From Alphaproteobacteria bacterium (GTDB lineage: Bacteria; Pseudomonadota; Alphaproteobacteria; CAAHEQ01; UBA3637), in NCBI GenBank assembly GCA_015062245.1, contig SUVA01000003.1, positions 21,372-85,371 of the forward strand: a stretch of DNA of 64,000 bases. Reading direction: 5' to 3'. The position numbers and the translations under genes were made by a program. This document shows positions 18,729 through 27,893 of this stretch, one piece after another. The first letter of the stretch is position 1. Each line of letters starts with the position of its first letter. Under the pieces are notes generated by a model. The model had not been told where the DNA came from, did not search any database, and saw nothing but the letters and a program-made list of their open reading frames with translations.

Positions 18729-19919
18729 TTATGGATCCCGACAAATGGCGGAGTTGTTGAGGTAGCCACTGTAGCGAGAGTCGTCGAGGACAGCACCGCT
18801 GTTGTGGGAGACAAAACGCGTGCCACAGGAACCTGACTTGCTATTATCCGCTAGCCAAAGACTACCAGATTCTCCAAAGACATCTGTACTTCTAATCGCT
18901 ACATTTGTGGCCGAACAATCACTATCTGATCCGCCATTGCAAATACAAGGTTTCGTTGCGTAATTTGAGTGTGAACTGTTAAAATAACAGTGTGTATTCG
19001 TGCCACTGTCCGCCAGCCCTAAATCAGACATAGTCACAAGTTGTTTGCCATGCGCTTGACACAGGTTGGACGCACTCCACCAGTTCATTGTGCCTGAACT
19101 CTTATACACCGTTAAAGCACCACCGGGCAGGTTGAGGGTTTTGACCGTAAAATCATTTGTATCATCCAATTCTCCCTTATCCGTACACGTTCCCGTCCCC
19201 GGATTCGTACAACTACCATCACTGAACTTGCAGTATTTTGTCGTATCCACATTGCCTTCGGCATCCTTACAATCGCCGTTCTGGGTACACCCACTCGTTG
19301 GTTTGGCGCAGATGTATGTTGAGGTATTCGTCCCCTTTGCACAATACGTCCCTTCGGCGCAACATTCTGTCCCGCACATAAAGACACCGTTCGGACATTT
19401 GCATTCGCCGTGGAAACACTTTAGTCCGTCATCACATGTTACATTCTTACAGGCTGGGTCAAACTTTCCCCCTGTTGGGCTTTTTTCGCCTTCGGCCTCT
19501 GTGGTTGCCAAGTTTTTGTAATAAGTGATGGTAGCATTGCCTGATTCATCACAAACAACATCACGCACCATACCGCCTTTGGAATTTTTCATTTGTGTGC
19601 AAACATCTTTATCAATGCCCGATAGTGTTAAATTAAATTGAGTGCCGTTATCGGTAAGAGTGGTTGCATAGCCTGAGTTGGCAAAATCGGTGATTGTTGA
19701 TGGTAATTTCCCGTCATTGGTCATGGCATAAGCCGACACCGTTGTTGCCATCATGGATGCTTTATGCAAGGCCTCATTGGCTTTGTGTTTTTCCACCGCT
19801 TTGGAATAGGCCGATATGCCACCAACACTCAACACGCCCACAATGGCCAGCACGCCCAGCATTTCAACCATACTGCGCCCCTTTTGACTTCTTTTATCAT
19901 TTTTGTTTGTTTTATTCAT
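18729..19919 (-). CDS. Type IV pilin-like N-terminus fused to Cys-rich EGF-like repeats and a C-type-lectin-like C-terminal domain (396 aa); candidate adhesin
   Basis: Class-III signal-like N-terminus QKG|RSMVEMLGVLAIVGVLSVGGISAY with Glu at +5 and a hydrophobic helix; central CxxGxC repeats (CDDGLKCFHGECKCPNGVFMCGTECCAEGTYC); C-terminal WWSASNLCQAHGKQLVTMSDL resembles a CTLD start. Confidence 0.5.
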   Translation of the reverse strand: MNKTNKNDKRSQKGRSMVEMLGVLAIVGVLSVGGISAYSKAVEKHKANEALHKASMMATTVSAYAMTNDGKLPSTITDFANSGYATTLTDNGTQFNLTLSGIDKDVCTQMKNSKGGMVRDVVCDESGNATITYYKNLATTEAEGEKSPTGGKFDPACKNVTCDDGLKCFHGECKCPNGVFMCGTECCAEGTYCAKGTNTSTYICAKPTSGCTQNGDCKDAEGNVDTTKYCKFSDGSCTNPGTGTCTDKGELDDTNDFTVKTLNLPGGALTVYKSSGTMNWWSASNLCQAHGKQLVTMSDLGLADSGTNTHCYFNSSHSNYATKPCICNGGSDSDCSATNVAIRSTDVFGESGSLWLADNSKSGSCGTRFVSHNSGAVLDDSRYSGYLNNSAICRDP

Positions 19920-20170: not shown

Positions 20171-20199
20171 TGACATTATAAAATCATTTGTGTAAAATA
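20171..20199 (+). promoter_or_regulatory. Near-consensus sigma70 promoter (TTGACA-17-TAAAAT) immediately upstream of the tRNA-His 5' remnant (probable native tRNA-His promoter)
   Basis: ttgacattataaaatcatttgtgtaaaat read directly; it drives only the truncated tRNA fragment at 20216. Confidence 0.4.
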
Positions 20200-20209
20200 T
20201 AAACTATTC

Positions 20210-20256
20210 ACCAGATGGCGGATGTAGCTCAGTTGGTTAGAGCGCTGGTTTGTGGT
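20210..20256 (+). repeat. Distal attachment-site repeat: 47-nt exact copy of the 5' half of tRNA-His (leader through anticodon loop)
   Basis: accagatggcggatgtagctcagttggttagagcgctggtttgtggt is identical to 27809-27855; the sequences diverge right after the anticodon GTG. Confidence 0.7.
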
Positions 20257-20619
20257 TCCGCTTTTCAACTTCCAAATTTTCTGATAAACACCGCATAAAA
20301 GACAAGAGCAGAATTCTTGTATTGAATTTGTTATAAGTCCTGTCATTATTGTTCTATCTTGAAATTTGAATGAATGGAAAGGTATCTTTTGGGCGCTTAA
20401 ATTTTGGAAATTCAGAACGCCTAAAAGCTCAAACCTCATTTTCTATCCCTAAACTCTCCCTAAACGATGGAATAATCACTTTTGTAAATGGGAAAAAGGA
20501 CTTTTTTCTTTGGCATTTACATTAGCCTCATTAGCCGCATTTGCCCCTTACATTAATATTATGCCCGAAATTTTTGAAAATGTCAAAAGAAATTAAGGGG
20601 TTATTTAAAAATAAACGCG

Positions 20620-21108
20620 TTATTTTTCACGAAATGATAGCATAAAATCCAAATTTCTTTTTGTAATCCAAAAAGAAAAAAGTAATCCTAAGAATGAAAT
20701 AAGTGCATAATAGGAAGAGATAACTAAACATACTTTCCATTCTGTTGTGGAAAACAAAAAGGCAAAAATTATTGATAGTAAGCAGGTCATAATTGTCCAT
20801 GATAGAAAATTGAGTAAATTTTTCAATGGTCGATATTGTTCTTTTTTCCAGCCATCTTTGTATTCTGATTTTAAGTAATTGGTGTAATCTTCTTTATCAT
20901 ATAATTTTTCTTTCATATGTGGTATTAGGAAACTTTGCATTGTAAATAAGATGGAGGCAATAGCAAAATATGCAGAAATCCAACTTCCTGTTCCATTAGG
21001 ATCTTTTGGAACTAATGGAATGAGGGTCAATACAAAAGATAATTCCTTTACTTTGAAAGAAATAACCAAAGGAATAATAAAAGTAAATATTGTAAAAAAT
21101 ACCTTCAT
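20620..21108 (-). CDS. Small integral membrane protein (162 aa, ~4 TM), island cargo
   Basis: Four hydrophobic segments (FFTIFTFIIPLVISF, ISAYFAIASILFTMQSFLI, LSWTIMTCLLSIIFAFLF, LVISSYYALISFLGLLFSFWI); 3 nt downstream of the 292-aa gene. Confidence 0.5.
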   Translation of the reverse strand: MKVFFTIFTFIIPLVISFKVKELSFVLTLIPLVPKDPNGTGSWISAYFAIASILFTMQSFLIPHMKEKLYDKEDYTNYLKSEYKDGWKKEQYRPLKNLLNFLSWTIMTCLLSIIFAFLFSTTEWKVCLVISSYYALISFLGLLFSFWITKRNLDFMLSFREK

Positions 21109-21111
21109 TTT

Positions 21112-21990
21112 CTAAATAATCCCTAAATCTCTACAGATAACATTTGATTTTACAAAATCTAACATATGAACAATAGTTGGATGGGTACTTAACTCTTCTG
21201 TATTAAATTTTTTTAATTCCCGTGTTACGTCATCGTAATCATAAGATGTTAATGGCCTAAAAATATTGTCTAAATTTATAACTTCCCTTTCTCCTTCTTC
21301 ATTTTTCCCAACCACTTTCAATTTTTTAGTACCTAATTCTTTTAAGTCAAGAATTTTAGGGATTATATCAGATAAAGGAGCCTTCCTTTTAAAAATTATT
21401 TGTTTTTGTTCGGATTTTACAAAATCAGGAGTAAAAATAGAACGTTTTGTAGATTGCTCTAAATACGATATTGAAGTGATTGAAAAAAACCTATTCAATG
21501 CCATAGAAGCTTCTTCAGCCTTTATTATTTGGATGCAAGAAATCTTATTTTTTCTCTTAAAGCTCAGTGACGAGCTGTCGTAGCCTTTTAGTGAAACAAA
21601 ATCATCAAAAAACTTTCTTAAAATTTTTTCTAACACAGATAATGAAGCAGAATTAGCATATGTCAACCATATCCCTGATGTAGTATTTTTATTCAAAATG
21701 AAAAAGTTGTATTCCGCACCATCTTTGATTTCGGCTATTTCTGTAGAATATCCCCCATTAGGATTTACTACTACTCTGCAATGTGCTGAGTAGTCTCGAG
21801 AAGAAAAAAGTAGTCCGGCGTAATAAGAGGAGGAAGCAACTGGTTGAATAAAAAGATTTCTCTTTTTTTTACAGATATCAATTGGTCCTTCTTTTTGAGA
21901 AGTTATATAATCAAAAAGATCTGAAATGGAAAAATCGATATCTTTTTGCTTTTTTAAAATAATTTTAAAGGGATATGCGTTTATATTCAT
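21112..21990 (-). CDS. Hypothetical cytoplasmic protein (292 aa), island cargo, no recognisable domain
   Basis: Long ORF co-directional with and between the XRE gene and the membrane-protein gene; composition typical of the element (very AT-rich, Lys/Ser/Phe-rich). Confidence 0.45.
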   Translation of the reverse strand: MNINAYPFKIILKKQKDIDFSISDLFDYITSQKEGPIDICKKKRNLFIQPVASSSYYAGLLFSSRDYSAHCRVVVNPNGGYSTEIAEIKDGAEYNFFILNKNTTSGIWLTYANSASLSVLEKILRKFFDDFVSLKGYDSSSLSFKRKNKISCIQIIKAEEASMALNRFFSITSISYLEQSTKRSIFTPDFVKSEQKQIIFKRKAPLSDIIPKILDLKELGTKKLKVVGKNEEGEREVINLDNIFRPLTSYDYDDVTRELKKFNTEELSTHPTIVHMLDFVKSNVICRDLGII

Positions 21991-22050
21991 CTAAGACTCC
22001 AAAAAAAACTGTACTATTTATAGCAGAATTTTAAGAAAAAATCAAATTGT

Positions 22051-22389
22051 TTATTTCATTTCCAAAAGGGCCTCAATCTGTTTAAGGGCGGTTTTGAGTG
22101 TCTTTTCATCCTGTCCTTCTAATAATCGGGTAATAGTCTTTAATGTGTCTGAATGTGGTTTGTTCTGTGTGGATATATCAGTCAATAAATCTTGAACGGG
22201 GACATTGAGTGCGTTAGCAAAGGAAAGAAGTGTTGTAATTTTGGGGTCACTGAGTCCACGTTCTACATTTGAAATGGTATTTATCATTTTACCGGATACT
22301 TCGGCAAATTCCTCTTGTGAAAGTCTTTTTTGTTTGCGTAAAACGGCAATACGTTTACCAAGCGTTTGTAAAAATACTTTATTTGTCAT
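22051..22389 (-). CDS. XRE-family HTH transcriptional regulator (Cro/cI-like)
   Basis: LRKQKRLSQEEFAEVSGKMINTISNVERGLSDPKITTLLSFANALNVPVQDLL = classic HTH_XRE; start placed at MTNKVFLQ (the upstream in-frame extension lacks an RBS). Confidence 0.7.
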   Translation of the reverse strand: MTNKVFLQTLGKRIAVLRKQKRLSQEEFAEVSGKMINTISNVERGLSDPKITTLLSFANALNVPVQDLLTDISTQNKPHSDTLKTITRLLEGQDEKTLKTALKQIEALLEMK

Positions 22390-22465
22390 AATACCTCTTT
22401 TGTTATGGTAGTATTTTCCTATTTTGCTGTGTAAAAGACCATAACGGTAAAATGTGTATTTTGGC

Positions 22466-22494
22466 TTGACATTTCTAAAAATACATATTATACT
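22466..22494 (+). promoter_or_regulatory. Sigma70 promoter (TTGACA-17-TATACT) for the PD-(D/E)xK-like gene
   Basis: cttgacatttctaaaaatacatattatact read directly. Confidence 0.45.
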
Positions 22495-22519
22495 GTGTTT
22501 ATTGATTACAATAAACACA
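22494..22519. promoter_or_regulatory. Perfect 11-4-11 palindromic operator (TGTGTTTATTG-atta-CAATAAACACA) between -10 and RBS
   Basis: Exact inverted repeat read directly; positioned to block transcription; the divergent XRE repressor is the obvious candidate binder. Confidence 0.45.
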
Positions 22520-22531
22520 TGGGAGTATGAA

Positions 22532-23467
22532 ATGAACGGTCCAAACATCTTCGATTATGCTACCAGTGAGCTCTCTCAAGATGCTTTTTTGTGTTATCTG
22601 TTAGCCTTTGGAAAAGAAAAATATAAAATGGATTTTCCGAAAGAGTATATGCTTGCTCATAAGTTTCTTGCAAAATGTGGTATTGATGAAAAAGAGGAAA
22701 TATTGTCCGTTGGACAACAGGTGGAACATATTGATGTTTTAATTATTACAACTTCCCACATTCTTATTATTGAAGATAAAACTTATACTGATGAACATGA
22801 TGATCAAATAATTCGTTATGTGAAAAATATGAGGAAATCTGAAGAAAAATTTTTAAATGATAAAAAAATTAAGGTATGTTTTTTAAAAACAGGCGATTAT
22901 GTTAAATCCTATTCTTCAAGTGATGAAAGTGTTTTACAAAATAAAGATTGTTGTTCTTTAAGACGTAAAAATTTATTGGAATTACTAAAGGATTATTATA
23001 AGTGTAATTTAGTATTTGAAATGTTTTATAAACGACTTCTTTCCGTTGAAGAAGCTATAGAACAATGTGATAGTGAAAATATATTTGATTGGAATCGCTA
23101 TAAATGGTTCGATTTCCTTTATAATACTTTAATTGAGAAAAAGAAAGTTTTTGACATAAAATGGGTTCATAATCCTAATGGCGGTTTTTATGGTTGTTGG
23201 TTTGGTTCTCATAAACTAGGAGAAATTGAGAAGTATAAACAAATTGAAATTCATTTCAATGAAAAGGGAACAGAATTTGTAGATTTGTGCTTAAAATGTT
23301 CATCTGAAAGTAAAGAGAAAACTCAGAAATATAAATCAGATATGGAAAAGTGGCAAAAGGAATCTGGTTTTAATCGTCCTGATCGTTGGCGTATTGGTCG
23401 GACAACAACCTATGCCACAAAACAAGCAATCAATGTTCGGGATATTCAAAACTTTATCAAAAAATAA
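22532..23467 (+). CDS. PD-(D/E)xK nuclease-like protein (312 aa), island cargo
   Basis: E...D...E-x-K arrangement (SELSQDAF ... HIDVLIITTSHILIIEDKTY) with the hydrophobic-strand context typical of restriction-endonuclease-fold nucleases; GGGAG RBS 6 nt before the ATG. Confidence 0.4.
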   Translation: MNGPNIFDYATSELSQDAFLCYLLAFGKEKYKMDFPKEYMLAHKFLAKCGIDEKEEILSVGQQVEHIDVLIITTSHILIIEDKTYTDEHDDQIIRYVKNMRKSEEKFLNDKKIKVCFLKTGDYVKSYSSSDESVLQNKDCCSLRRKNLLELLKDYYKCNLVFEMFYKRLLSVEEAIEQCDSENIFDWNRYKWFDFLYNTLIEKKKVFDIKWVHNPNGGFYGCWFGSHKLGEIEKYKQIEIHFNEKGTEFVDLCLKCSSESKEKTQKYKSDMEKWQKESGFNRPDRWRIGRTTTYATKQAINVRDIQNFIKK

Positions 23468-23652: not shown

Positions 23653-23688
23653 AGGATAGGGCGGAAAAACTCCGCCCTTTTTCTTTCT
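23653..23688. terminator. Bidirectional terminator (gggcggaaaaactccgccc flanked by T-runs) between convergent island genes
   Basis: Read directly. Confidence 0.45.
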
Positions 23689-25925
23689 TACACGGAATCA
23701 AAAACTTCTGGATTTACTATATAAAGTGTTTTTTGACGACCCCTTGATTCCCCTGGTCGAGATATTTTTTTAGTTTTTAACCATCCATATTTTATCAAAA
23801 TAGAGGTTGCTTTTTCCGCTTGTTCCTTTCGCCGAATTCCAGGAACAACTGCGTTGTAATAGATATCCCTTAAGGTAAAGCTCTCAATTTTGTTGTTTAA
23901 GATATATTGAGCTAATTTTCTGGCTTCTTGCTGATATTCTGGCGCCATATAAATTCCATAAACACGTTTTGCCATAGGAAATAAGTACTGTTCATAAAAA
24001 TTTATAGCAGTATTAAGAGCATTTAACCCAATGAAATCAGGCTCTGGATTTTCGCTATCTGCCCACCATAAATATTCAAACATCAAACTTAAACGAACAA
24101 CAACACCCTGTCCTTTATTCAAGAAAAAACCCAATTTTTCATCTTCCCGTTCAATCGCTTGTGCAAAATGGACGTGTTTTAAGTACCACTGATTAAACAT
24201 TTCCTGAGCCTCATCAGAAAATTTTAATTGCTTTTTGGGATTCTCAGCATTATCCCCATAAGGATTGACTAAATTGAATAATTTTTTAAGTGCACGGAAC
24301 ACTTTTTCGTTATTCGGAGCTACTTTGGGGATAGCAGGGGCTACAACCTCTGGATAAGCCCAAAGAAAACGAGGGACAAGCCCGTCTTCGGCGTTACCCA
24401 AAAAGGCGTCTATGACCCTTTTAGGCTGGATAGTGCCAAAAATTGAAATAAGCAAATGTGGTACTTCAATTCTATCTTCCCCAAATTTTACACGATCGGA
24501 AGAATAATATTTACCATTATAGGTTTCAAGCCAAAAACTTTTTTCAGCGTTGCCACTGGTGTATCGATTCATTCCTGCTAACCATCCATACAGCTCGTCT
24601 CGAAAAACGATTGCCCCAGTTGTATTGTTTTGTAAGTTTTGAAGAAGTGCTTCCTGCGTTGTATCACAAAAACAAAAACGATATGATTGTGGTTTTGGAG
24701 GCTTATTCAAATTATCGGGAATCGTTTGTTTTTTATCTGGATTTTTTTTGATATCCTTATACCAGTTCTTTAACTTTTTTTCATAAGCTATATTTTCACC
24801 TTTCCAAACGTTATAAGCCCTCTCAAACTCTGGCTTACGTGATTTTTCCAAATCACATAAAATGCTTTTTATAGGACTGATAGTCGGCGTTTTTCTTGAG
24901 CTCGGATCTCCAACAATTCCCATAAAAAAACAGGGGTATTCTACAAAACCAGGCCATGGGGAAAGGCTGCGGGCTAATCCCATACAGGCACCCGTTGCTG
25001 CTATTAAAGAAAATCCAACATAGTCAACTGCTGCATTACAACTGGCAGCTGTTTCCACTACCCATTCTTCCATAGTTTGAAAACAATCGGTTTTCATCCT
25101 TGGAGCAGGTTCAATAATTTTTTCCTTTAAAATGGATAAATCAAGTTCTTGGAAATCTGGATTATCCAAGGTTTCAGAAAAAGAGATTGAATTTTCTAAT
25201 GTTCTTTCTACTTCTTCAATTTCAAGTCCACTTTGTAAAGCTGACTTAATAATTTTGTTATATATATTTGCCATATTTAAACTCCTTTCTTTGGCAAGTT
25301 GTTGGATGCGAATTGATTTTCGCAAAAGTGTATCATTGCGTTTACCCTCTGGGGCATTTGAAATGTCTTCCAAAAGTGCTGATATATCGTTAATTCTGGC
25401 GTTTTTGCCTGTTATAATTTCTAGCAACCATTCAGGCGCTTCTGGAAAAGTTAAATCATTAGGATTTACATTTTCCCAATGATATTGGTTACCGTTTTCA
25501 TGAACGGAAAAGGGGGCAACAATATATCCCCCGTCTGCACGTATATCAATATGCGGGGCAATTTTACTGGCGCTTGACCTAATAGTTATATTTTCGGGGT
25601 ATTTAAAATAAAGGTGTTTTCCTCGCCCTGTTAAAACGGCTGGGGCATTTAATTTACCATACTCTTTTTCCAAAAGTTGAAGTGATTCAAATCCTTCTTG
25701 TTCGTCAATATCAACTACGAAAATACCATTTTCTTCCCCAGTTGGGAGACCAATATTACAAGGGGAAAATTTTTCACTCCATTCCGTTATTTGTTTTAAG
25801 TCTGTTGTGGCTCCCTTAAAACCTGTTTTAATAAGGGGAGCCTTTCCACGATATTTCACGGGGAAGACTTTCATATTTAACCGAACATATTGTTTGGCGA
25901 TGTTATAAAAGTTGTTTTCAATCAT
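23688..25925 (-). CDS. Bifunctional DNA primase/polymerase (AEP Prim-Pol N-terminal domain) with C-terminal P4-alpha-like/DUF3987-type region; element replication protein
   Basis: VVDIDEQEGFESLQLLEKEYGKLNAPAVLTGRGKHLYFKYPENITIRSSASKIAPHIDIRADGGYIVAPFSVHENGNQYHWEN matches the Prim-Pol signature (lDiD...tpsGGrHlyf...G.DvRgdGGYvvaPpSvh.sG..Y.w); 745 aa. Confidence 0.75.
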   Translation of the reverse strand: MIENNFYNIAKQYVRLNMKVFPVKYRGKAPLIKTGFKGATTDLKQITEWSEKFSPCNIGLPTGEENGIFVVDIDEQEGFESLQLLEKEYGKLNAPAVLTGRGKHLYFKYPENITIRSSASKIAPHIDIRADGGYIVAPFSVHENGNQYHWENVNPNDLTFPEAPEWLLEIITGKNARINDISALLEDISNAPEGKRNDTLLRKSIRIQQLAKERSLNMANIYNKIIKSALQSGLEIEEVERTLENSISFSETLDNPDFQELDLSILKEKIIEPAPRMKTDCFQTMEEWVVETAASCNAAVDYVGFSLIAATGACMGLARSLSPWPGFVEYPCFFMGIVGDPSSRKTPTISPIKSILCDLEKSRKPEFERAYNVWKGENIAYEKKLKNWYKDIKKNPDKKQTIPDNLNKPPKPQSYRFCFCDTTQEALLQNLQNNTTGAIVFRDELYGWLAGMNRYTSGNAEKSFWLETYNGKYYSSDRVKFGEDRIEVPHLLISIFGTIQPKRVIDAFLGNAEDGLVPRFLWAYPEVVAPAIPKVAPNNEKVFRALKKLFNLVNPYGDNAENPKKQLKFSDEAQEMFNQWYLKHVHFAQAIEREDEKLGFFLNKGQGVVVRLSLMFEYLWWADSENPEPDFIGLNALNTAINFYEQYLFPMAKRVYGIYMAPEYQQEARKLAQYILNNKIESFTLRDIYYNAVVPGIRRKEQAEKATSILIKYGWLKTKKISRPGESRGRQKTLYIVNPEVFDSV

Positions 25926-25951: not shown

Positions 25952-26365
25952 TTATTCTTCACAATTAAAAAGTCTATCCAAATAGCTACAAGCTGCTTCA
26001 ATGGTGTAATATACTTTTTTGTTTACACACACGTATTGGGAATGATCATCTCTTGTAATAACTCCTTCCAGCATAGAATCTTTATTTCGTAAAGTATTGC
26101 AATTTAGAAATCCGCAAACTTCACAGAATTTTGTTCTTGCGATTGTTTCACCATATGTCTTGATTTTTGCCTTTAATTTGTATAACAAATTTGGGCTGAT
26201 ATAATTTTTGATCATTTTAAAGACCTTTGTTTTTAGGTTATGGGGATCCCAGATTAAAACCACTGTTTTTCTGTTCCCACCTAAAAACGCAGCAAATCTT
26301 ATTTTCACCTTTTTATTTTTATTTATTTTATAAGTTTTTGATTTTAAATAATTATATCTAATCAT
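25952..26365 (-). CDS. Hypothetical Cys-containing protein (137 aa) between integrase and primase
   Basis: ORF only; CEVCGFLNC ... CVNKK ... C pattern suggests a zinc ribbon; start overlaps integrase stop. Confidence 0.35.
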   Translation of the reverse strand: MIRYNYLKSKTYKINKNKKVKIRFAAFLGGNRKTVVLIWDPHNLKTKVFKMIKNYISPNLLYKLKAKIKTYGETIARTKFCEVCGFLNCNTLRNKDSMLEGVITRDDHSQYVCVNKKVYYTIEAACSYLDRLFNCEE

Positions 26366-27542
26366 TTTCTGACTCCGAATTGAGCGTGCGAACAGCTTTA
26401 CGCAAAGAATTATTGGATAAATGTGAATATCTGAGGGTCATGGAAATATCAGAATGCCCTAAAAGTTCTTTAACCACAAAAATAGAATTTCCTTTTTCCA
26501 CAAGGCGACTTGCATACGTATGTCTTAATGTGTGAAAGACAACCTTTTGCCGTCTATCAGTGATTCCCTGATTGAGGCCCAATTTTTTCACGGCTCTTTC
26601 ATAAGTTCTTGATACATGTTCAATTTTTTTACCATTTCGGCTTGGAAAAAGGTGTTGATTTGTTTCTTTGTTTGGAAGTTTTGAAACTTCTTCAAAAACA
26701 CGATCTGTCATAAAGGCAAAACGGTTTTTCTTGTTTTTTGTATCTTTTAGAGTGAATTCTTTTTGATTCAAATTGACATCCGCCCAAGTCAGATTAAAAA
26801 TTTCTCCTGCTCGTAATCCACAGTCTGCCGAAATTAGAGCCATTAAATATACTTCATAGCTTCTCTTTTTAAGTTCTGTAAATAGAGCTTCCAATTCTTC
26901 AGCTGTTAAATAGCGTATGCGCCGATTGTCTTCTTTTTTACATTTTATTTTTGACGCAGGATTTTCCAAGCCAAAGTATAAATTTTCTTTTTTTGCAAAA
27001 TTGAACACTTGGCGCATAAGGGCAATCGCATAATTTTGACTTCGGACAGATAGTTGTTGATCTGCCATTATATTTTGCACCCTAATGAGGCTATTGCGGC
27101 TTATTTTTTCTAAGGGTAAAGAGCCAAAATAAGGTTCAAGCCATTTTTTAAATAAAACAAGCTCTCTATCATTTGTACTCTTTTTATGATATATTTGGCA
27201 ATAAGGCATATAACAAAGAGAAAAGATTTCCCTAAAAGTTTTGCTTTGAATACAATTCCTCTTATTACGTTCAAGAAGTTCATTGTTTTTCTTTTGTTGT
27301 TGTTGGGCTATTTCTTTTAAAGAGAATGCTGTACCAGCTTTTATACGTTGTTTTAAATCCCCTAATATATGATAAGCCTTTTCAGCTGTCCAACCCAGCG
27401 ATTTAAAACCAATCGGTTCTTCGTATTGTTTACCATTAACAGTATAGCGGATTGAAAAATAAATATCTTTCTTTCCTTGAGAGACACATTCTCTTTTTCT
27501 TACCCCTGGAAAATTTTTTGTCATTTTTACACTTCCTTTCAT
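26358..27542 (-). CDS. int: Tyrosine-type site-specific integrase
   Basis: Catalytic region HTLRHTYASRLVEKGNSIFVVKELLGHSDISMTLRYSHL (R...HxxR...Y); N-terminal SAM-like/arm-binding region; lies 270 nt from tRNA-His, reading away from it. Confidence 0.85.
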   Translation of the reverse strand: MKGSVKMTKNFPGVRKRECVSQGKKDIYFSIRYTVNGKQYEEPIGFKSLGWTAEKAYHILGDLKQRIKAGTAFSLKEIAQQQQKKNNELLERNKRNCIQSKTFREIFSLCYMPYCQIYHKKSTNDRELVLFKKWLEPYFGSLPLEKISRNSLIRVQNIMADQQLSVRSQNYAIALMRQVFNFAKKENLYFGLENPASKIKCKKEDNRRIRYLTAEELEALFTELKKRSYEVYLMALISADCGLRAGEIFNLTWADVNLNQKEFTLKDTKNKKNRFAFMTDRVFEEVSKLPNKETNQHLFPSRNGKKIEHVSRTYERAVKKLGLNQGITDRRQKVVFHTLRHTYASRLVEKGNSIFVVKELLGHSDISMTLRYSHLSNNSLRKAVRTLNSESEND

Positions 27543-27769: not shown

Positions 27770-27798
27770 TGACTTTTGGTAAAAAATCTGCGAAAATA
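27770..27798 (+). promoter_or_regulatory. Weaker promoter-like sequence (TTGACT-17-GAAAAT) driving the intact tRNA-His; sits inside the element side of the repeat
   Basis: acttgacttttggtaaaaaatctgcgaaaat read directly. Confidence 0.3.
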
Positions 27799-27815
27799 AG
27801 GCTTATCAACCAGAT

Positions 27816-27893
27816 GGCGGATGTAGCTCAGTTGGTTAGAGCGCTGGTTTGTGGTACCAGATGTCGTCGGTTCGAGTCCGATCTTCCGCCCCA
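27816..27893 (+). tRNA. tRNA-His (anticodon GTG) with G-1 and encoded CCA
   Basis: Cloverleaf folded by eye: G-1, acceptor GCGGATG/CTTCCGC, D-arm GTAGCTCAGTTGGTTAGAGC, anticodon loop TTGTGGT, T-arm GTCGG-TTCGAGT-CCGAT, discriminator C, CCA. Confidence 0.85.

Follow-up and report, generated by a model that had tools for sequence, protein, structure and literature searches.

The rexA-rexB gene pair of phage lambda (RexAB) is the oldest known phage-exclusion system, going back to Benzer's rII work, and its mechanism is still unresolved. The two genes are expressed together with cI from the maintenance promoter. RexB is an inner-membrane protein of about 144 aa with four transmembrane helices, and its gene lies directly after rexA. 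RexA forms dimers and binds DNA non-specifically. It is believed to detect infection and then to switch on the RexB channel, so that the cell loses its membrane potential and ATP and the infection is aborted. The same protein tunes the CI-Cro switch and interacts with both CI and Cro, and exclusion may be a by-product (PMC11077077).

According to Rosendahl et al. 2026, only five Rex-like systems have been described so far (PMC12894663). Their study showed that both genes of RexABpp (PP_5643/PP_5644), located in prophage P1 of P. putida, are needed for phage defence, and that activation of the system leads to partner-dependent growth arrest and membrane permeabilisation (PMC12894663). BLAST gave no functional clue for PP_5643/5644, and it was HHpred that tied PP_5643 to RexA, with a probability of 98% (PMC12894663). 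Pairs of a soluble and a membrane protein are also carried by temperate actinobacteriophages (Sbash gp30/gp31, CarolAnn gp44/gp43, Toast gp42 and Butters gp30/gp31). These pairs exclude other phages, several of them lie beside the immunity repressor, and their RexA-like proteins dimerise and bind DNA non-specifically. In Butters the roles are reversed: the soluble protein is the toxic effector and the membrane protein sequesters or restrains it.

Here we compare with these systems a three-gene locus found in the window, that is, the whole 64-kb stretch of DNA analysed, which stems from an uncultured alphaproteobacterium.

Three genes at the end of a tRNA-His island

The locus belongs to a 7.6-kb island inserted in tRNA-His, whose features are the following (window coordinates).

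20194-20259, plus strand: island boundary, a partial tRNA-His copy (5' half) with upstream bases, found as a direct repeat
20620-21108, minus strand: membrane protein of 162 aa with four helices, a proposed RexB-like effector, from hydropathy and gene position
21112-21990, minus strand: RexA-fold cytoplasmic protein, 292 aa, proposed sensor/activator, from predicted structure
22051-22389, minus strand: XRE/Cro-CI-type HTH regulator, 112 aa, Pfam HTH_3
22390-22531, no strand: control region from which the XRE gene and the 311-aa gene diverge, with candidate operators
22452-22463 and 22478-22491: half-sites related to the palindrome below, candidate operators
22466-22494, plus strand: promoter-like site TTGACA-17-TATACT, a sequence motif
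22494-22519: perfect palindrome TGTGTTTATTG-ATTA-CAATAAACACA (11-nt inverted repeat, 4-nt spacer), candidate operator
22532-23467, plus strand: divergent PD-(D/E)XK nuclease-like gene, 311 aa, Pfam PDDEXK_4, E 1.6e-5
23688-25925, minus strand: replication protein Prim-Pol + DUF3987 (primase-helicase), 745 aa, Pfam 6.4e-39 and 3.5e-54
25952-26365: 137-aa ORF, overlapping the end of the integrase gene
26358-27542, minus strand: tyrosine integrase, 394 aa, Pfam Phage_integrase, E 4.9e-33
27793-27858: direct-repeat partner, inside the intact tRNA-His gene 27817-27893

The initial annotation had described three co-directional genes, separated by 60 and 3 nt, which close the distal side of an integrative element. 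Coordinates derived anew from the sequence agree with this description: all three genes lie on the minus strand, with 60 nt between the XRE and the 292-aa gene (21991-22050) and 3 nt between the 292-aa and the 162-aa gene (21109-21111, TAG-AAA-ATG). Likewise, the tRNA-His direct repeats bracket an island that carries an integrase and has the three genes at its distal end. The boundary repeat measures 66 nt, with 88% identity and an identical core (repeat search), and the tRNA-His calls come from ARAGORN and Rfam.

GC content is 29-32% over 20-24 kb, whereas large parts of the DNA on either side have about 36-40%. The island may be a P4-like or PICI-like phage satellite. It is small, is flanked by tRNA-His repeats and encodes an integrase, a Prim-Pol/DUF3987 protein and an XRE regulator; we identified no capsid-redirecting, packaging or helper-interaction genes on it. 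The same backbone is present in a related element, locus L004, where a partial gene encodes a product 49% identical to the Prim-Pol/DUF3987 protein and the XRE counterpart is 65% identical. The slot between primase and repressor holds variable cargo, with different genes there in L004. In the window this cargo is the 311-aa protein, which also matched the PADLOC candidate PDC-S26 (E 1e-6).

Homologues of the 292-aa protein at 31-39% identity and the recurrence of its gene pair in nine of nine independent loci (described below) indicate that the three ORFs are real genes and not chance ORFs. The XRE gene has an ATG start preceded by an AAGAGG ribosome-binding site, within a longer 165-aa ORF that extends to 22548, and a GGAG lies 7 nt upstream of the start of the 292-aa gene. 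The XRE gene and the pair are probably co-transcribed, in the manner of cI and rexA-rexB in lambda.

Profile searches bore out the XRE assignment of the first gene (Pfam HTH_3, E 1.6e-14). Its product also matched the PADLOC HTH_VI and capH-like models, as well as the NCBIfam RstR phage repressor at 3.5e-11, a score under that model's own cut-off. The Pfam, NCBIfam and PADLOC profiles detected no S24 peptidase domain in this 112-aa protein, which differs in this from lambda CI with its cleavable C-terminal domain. It is probably the island's own repressor, in the position of cI. The exact palindrome arm motif occurs in the 64-kb window only as the two arms listed above, against 0.46 expected by chance, and two matches were reached in 7 of 100 shuffles. 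Based on these motifs, it is plausible that the palindrome and the half-sites are operators for the XRE protein.

Predicted fold of the 292-aa protein

The 292-aa protein had no match in Pfam, NCBIfam or PADLOC at E<=1. Its one hit, over nearly the full length and with E 4e-12, was to phrog_2802 of PHROG, a family whose function is unknown. It is identical to the MAG protein E7021_01590, and its close homologues are scarce (four clusters, 31-100% identity). A word-indexed homologue search with a 76-sequence alignment returned only 5 proteins, and a search for related loci with a narrow alignment returned one genome locus. A relation to H-NOX (Kordia algicida, 6bdd) was considered and discarded, the match of the family profile to this PDB sequence being borderline (E 0.013).

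AlphaFold2, given the 76-sequence alignment, produced a confident model (pLDDT 90.8, pTM 0.74). When this model was compared with the PDB by Foldseek, lambda RexA (8TWQ) was the best match (E 5.6e-6, probability 1.0), followed by RdgC (1.2e-4) and then CHL4. Taken together, the matches below RexA (RdgC, CHL4/CENP-N and IML3) form the very set of structural relatives published for RexA (PMC11077077). In a viral structure library, the best matches were uncharacterised phage proteins of about 280-315 aa and one "recombination-associated protein".

In the model, a beta-sheet domain makes up the N-terminal part (about residues 1-135). An alpha/beta domain occupies the centre (about 142-240), and the chain ends in helices (248-292). 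This linear order parallels the layout of RexA, in which globular parts at 1-139 and 248-279 flank a dimerisation domain at 143-234 (PMC11077077). The global TM-score between the model and RexA is low (0.28), as would be expected if the two domains were oriented differently from those in the RexA crystal; RexA crystallised in a closed form and is thought to open (PMC11077077). Judging from the model, the 292-aa protein adopts the RexA/RdgC fold with its two domains, of which the alpha/beta domain is inserted into the globular beta-sheet domain and splits it. By analogy with RexA, it is probably a DNA-binding dimer.

The initial annotation had seen no recognisable domain in this protein. As far as sequence is concerned this holds, since it matches nothing named, but its predicted structure is that of the RexA/RdgC fold. 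No assignment to a housekeeping or phage-morphogenesis family, which the initial annotation had named as speaking against its reading, emerged either: RdgC came only second, clearly weaker than RexA.

The likeness to RexA in fold is not accompanied by detectable sequence similarity. Neither the window protein nor the 76 family members matched RexA at E<=1 in Pfam or PADLOC, and none of the 76 matched any PADLOC model at E<=0.01. As a positive control, lambda RexA itself was recovered by the PADLOC RexA model (PDLC02339, 9e-110) and by phrog_12654 (6e-163), a PHROG family different from that of the window protein. Profile-profile comparison by hhalign of the 292-aa family with a four-sequence RexA alignment gave a probability of 0.1%, and a comparison with lambda RexA alone was also non-significant. 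The best local stretch, residues 189-209 of the window protein against 196-216 of RexA, has 38% identity, which is suggestive and statistically meaningless. The RexA and RexB profiles that we used were shallow (four sequences each, below the depth of HHpred), since the phage collection holds few canonical RexA proteins (19 records).

The membrane partner and the spread of the gene pair

Four-helix membrane proteins are common. Hydropathy gave four hydrophobic segments in the 162-aa protein (about residues 1-27, 46-63, 98-123 and 124-148), in line with the four helices proposed in the initial annotation. In size, predicted topology and gene position, this protein fits RexB. It differs in the loop after the second helix, which is about 12 aa in RexB, whereas in the window protein it is a conserved, charged stretch of 35 aa (MKEKLYDKEDY...YRPLKNL).

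Searches of Pfam, NCBIfam, PADLOC and PHROG assigned the 162-aa protein to no family and returned sub-threshold, composition-like matches only. One of these, Erg28 (E 5.9e-4, 20.5 bits against a curated cut-off of 22.2), was taken as an effect of composition. There was no match to RexB at E<=1 in Pfam, PADLOC or PHROG, while lambda RexB used as a positive control was detected by the PADLOC RexB model (PDLC02340, 8.6e-61) and also strongly by phrog_14878. hhalign of the partner alignment against a four-sequence RexB alignment gave a probability below 1%, and lambda RexB alone was again non-significant. The structure model of the membrane protein was poor (pLDDT 60) and unfit for a fold comparison with RexB.

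The pairing of the two proteins was examined with local HMMs for both families in nine independent loci, namely the window and the following eight.

L001 and L004: other alphaproteobacterial or metagenomic islands
L005: Alphaproteobacteria MAG
L006: marine contig
L009: Pseudoalteromonas
L012: E. coli phage mEp460
L016: metagenomic contig
L017: Desulfohalobiaceae MAG

A homologous membrane protein with three to four helices is encoded directly downstream of the RexA-fold gene in all nine. At every locus examined the partner gene encodes 146-196 aa and is separated from its neighbour by 0-4 nt or overlaps it, and the charged-loop motif is common to the partner proteins across loci. The partner at L006, a distant relative, does not have the first helix. 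Since both proteins stand side by side in 9/9 loci and the partners share this loop motif, the core unit is a two-gene pair. The repressor lies outside this core, as the more distant loci have no HTH gene ahead of the pair.

We therefore rejected the XRE gene as a general component of the module: a repressor is found directly upstream of the pair in only two of the nine loci (the window and L004), and the upstream genes at the other loci examined are non-HTH. Moreover, the XRE protein is 65% identical to its L004 counterpart, but the RexA-fold and membrane proteins reach only 37% and 36%, respectively. Given this difference and the absence of the XRE gene from the seven more distant loci, it seems to be part of the island backbone and not of the module. 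By the same identities, the pair looks to evolve faster than the repressor.

An exhaustive HMM search of 1.84 billion representatives retrieved 420 proteins at E<=1e-3, of which 205 reached E<=1e-10, so that the family comprises at least 420 clusters at 50% identity. Nearly all its members are 290-320 aa long and align end to end, and they range from Alphaproteobacteria to Pseudoalteromonas, Desulfohalobiaceae and E. coli. We consulted the source records of ten members, and any name they gave was "hypothetical protein".

The E. coli version, a pair of 308-aa and 182-aa proteins (WP_000868396.1/WP_001131905.1), is present in 219 of 5,426 complete genomes (about 4%) and is always chromosomal. 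Both genes are annotated as "hypothetical protein" in the eight records listed, and in the mEp460 record the membrane gene is wholly unannotated. At the two loci inspected, phage mEp460 and an O145:H28 chromosome, the pair lies in a lambdoid prophage beside the Q antiterminator gene and on the opposite strand, a typical moron position. Elsewhere, the pair adjoins an integrase (L001) or toxin-antitoxin and IS genes (L017). The pair thus belongs to mobile or accessory DNA.

Possible function and relation to known Rex systems

The module has all the computational hallmarks of RexABpp, and a stronger structural score. For these reasons we consider it rather probable that the window pair is a sequence-divergent phage-exclusion module of the RexAB type, acting in a manner similar to abortive infection. 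The initial annotation had proposed a cytoplasmic sensor and a small membrane effector as defence cargo of a satellite-like island. Computationally this is the best-supported reading, which our analysis sharpens to a RexAB-type pair with a putative anti-phage role.

If it resembles lambda RexAB and RexABpp in its mechanism, such a module could operate as follows. While the island is quiescent in the chromosome, the repressor operon would yield low amounts of the RexA-fold protein and its membrane partner. Upon infection, the RexA-fold protein, presumably as a DNA-binding dimer, would sense a phage product or a phage DNA-protein intermediate. It would then interact with the membrane protein and activate it, which may compromise membrane integrity or energisation, and growth would stop and the infection abort.

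A different role would be mainly regulatory, with the RexA-fold protein biasing the island between quiescence and induction together with the XRE protein at the divergent operators, the membrane protein modulating this, and exclusion absent or incidental. The precedent is lambda RexA itself, which interacts with CI and Cro and stabilises the lytic state independently of RexB (PMC11077077), and the 292-aa gene does lie directly after the conserved repressor of the island, next to a divergent region with a palindromic candidate operator. However, the feature that is invariant across the nine loci is the membrane partner and not the repressor, which precedes the pair directly in only the two cases noted above, and in E. 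coli prophages the pair stands by itself, at a distance from the immunity region and on the other strand. We therefore regard a mainly regulatory role as unlikely.

The tight coupling of two genes, one of them for a small membrane protein, on mobile elements would also suit a selfish stabilisation or toxin-like module, or a superinfection exclusion at the membrane such as a block of DNA entry; here the membrane protein would be the toxin, held back or directed by the soluble protein, with no sensing of infection and no abortive outcome. The sequestration of a toxic soluble protein by the Butters membrane protein lends this some precedent, but the RexA/RdgC fold forms a clamp that binds DNA and is not known to serve as an antitoxin or to block injection, and nothing else in our data points in this direction, so that we hold it to be quite improbable. 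It is very unlikely, finally, that the 292-aa protein is an RdgC-like modulator of recombination or replication, serving the DNA metabolism of the island next to a functionally unrelated membrane protein. E. coli RdgC (PDB 2OWL) does have the same two-domain fold and is the second-best structural match, at a lower score. On the other hand, it is a chromosomal, recombination-associated DNA ring protein without a membrane partner, RexA matches clearly better, and the 292-aa protein has no Pfam RdgC match at E<=1. The homologous membrane partner next to it in every locus, many of them without replication genes, also argues for a two-protein unit.

Returning to the RexAB-type reading, the parallels with lambda extend beyond the fold. 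In lambda RexAB, too, the gene for a soluble protein (about 280-290 aa in the two systems) is immediately followed by that for a membrane protein with four helices (about 145-160 aa), and the pair is likewise carried by an integrated mobile element, in its case a prophage, whereas the carrier in the window is an integrase-primase island. The co-directional order of repressor, RexA-fold and membrane gene in the window is that of lambda cI-rexA-rexB, found also in Klebsiella and Hafnia phages; within the family it recurs in L004 and not in the more distant members. The window locus is thus a small integrase-primase island with a lambda-like layout, a repressor gene and then a putative exclusion module. 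Among its differences from lambda is the sequence of both proteins, in which no similarity was detectable.

Tentatively, the window pair may represent a large unrecognised Rex-like branch, in which a RexA-fold sensor is combined with a membrane effector non-homologous to RexB, though we lean slightly against so strong a claim. If true, this would imply either a very ancient RexAB lineage or a separate event in which another membrane effector was recruited; trigger and membrane mechanism might then be peculiar to this branch. If the pairs are functional, the diversity of Rex-like systems, so far a few phage-specific cases, would rise to hundreds of clusters in several phyla. PADLOC v2, Pfam and PGAP naming all miss the family, which exposes a gap in the annotation of defence systems. 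The family offers many natural variants for studying the communication between a RexA-fold protein and a membrane effector, and the E. coli lambdoid prophage pair (WP_000868396.1, WP_001131905.1) is an easily testable representative.

Among the described systems, RexABpp is alike in having a four-helix membrane partner and a position just downstream of a Cro/CI repressor gene, and our comparison with it was based on its published description. HHpred linked PP_5643 to RexA, whereas the smaller profiles of the window family gave no such link. We also scanned viral and metagenome contigs with primer patterns for PP_5643/5644 derived from the supplement, which returned nothing or chance matches; since the machine-read supplement gives the reverse primer in two conflicting versions, the 34-nt pattern may hold reading errors. 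The actinobacteriophage pairs, likened to the window pair by description as well, differ in their actinobacterial hosts.

Altogether, the kind of system is already known, and the window family is a sequence-distinct variant of it that resembles RexABpp as described. In principle such a finding is unsurprising. It is useful for widening a classic and poorly understood system, the one first known from lambda RexAB.

The tRNA-His junction and the gene beyond it

We found the 5' half of tRNA-His in two copies as a result of the island, both sharing an identical core that extends through the anticodon:

window 20194-20259 and 27793-27893: tRNA-His 5'-half duplication

Since the island integrase gene adjoins the intact tRNA-His, the element appears to have supplied the 5' half of the working gene; the promoter region of that gene possibly comes from the element as well. 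The part more usually supplied by an integrating element is the tRNA 3' end.

Immediately beyond the island lies a gene whose segment has a GC content of 46%, above that of both flanks (roughly 33-39%):

window 18729-19919, minus strand: cysteine-rich protein, 396 aa, with a type-IV-pilin-like hydrophobic N-terminus

Cargo slot and candidate operators

The slot between the primase and the XRE gene is occupied by a nuclease-like gene transcribed divergently from the XRE gene, and a perfect inverted repeat was also located:

window 22532-23467, plus strand: PD-(D/E)XK nuclease-like gene, 311 aa (Pfam PDDEXK_4, E 1.6e-5; PADLOC candidate PDC-S26, E 1e-6)
window 22494-22519: perfect inverted repeat (11-nt arms, 4-nt spacer)

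Because the related element L004, which has the same backbone, has this slot filled by three other genes (DUF6150, 337 aa and 169 aa), our data suggest that the slot is a variable cargo hotspot, and it may here hold a second defence gene. The inverted repeat and its related half-sites, all within window 22452-22520, overlap with a promoter-like site, and we regard the repeat and half-sites as candidate operators of the XRE repressor.

Relatives of the RexA-fold and membrane protein pair

When the profile of the 292-aa family was compared with the PDB, a borderline sequence match (E 0.013) was obtained to the H-NOX domain of Kordia algicida (6bdd/6bde), spanning the conserved region GLLxTxKD...FNFF...Y.HY..S. 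Neither of two structure searches supported an H-NOX relationship. In one family member, P0049 (436 aa), the RexA-fold region is preceded by about 150 additional N-terminal residues, which may represent a fused extra domain.

On the marine contig L006 (7393-12915), two co-directional ORFs of 1,153 aa and 725 aa come after the pair, the latter length being partial as the ORF continues past the end of the stretch examined. Neither ORF had a Pfam match; they may encode additional parts of the system or be defence genes that happen to lie nearby.

Homologous pairs were also identified in phage mEp460 and E. coli:

L012 3855-5316: homologous pair, 308 aa + 182 aa (phage mEp460, LR595868)
L023 4001-5462: homologous pair, 308 aa + 182 aa (E. 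coli O145:H28 RM12761)

Both genes of the E. coli pair (WP_000868396.1 and WP_001131905.1) are labelled "hypothetical", and in the mEp460 record the membrane gene is unannotated, a small opposite-strand ORF being called in its place. The pair is present in 219 of 5,426 complete E. coli genomes and, at the two loci inspected (L012 and L023), adjoins the Q antiterminator gene of a lambdoid prophage.
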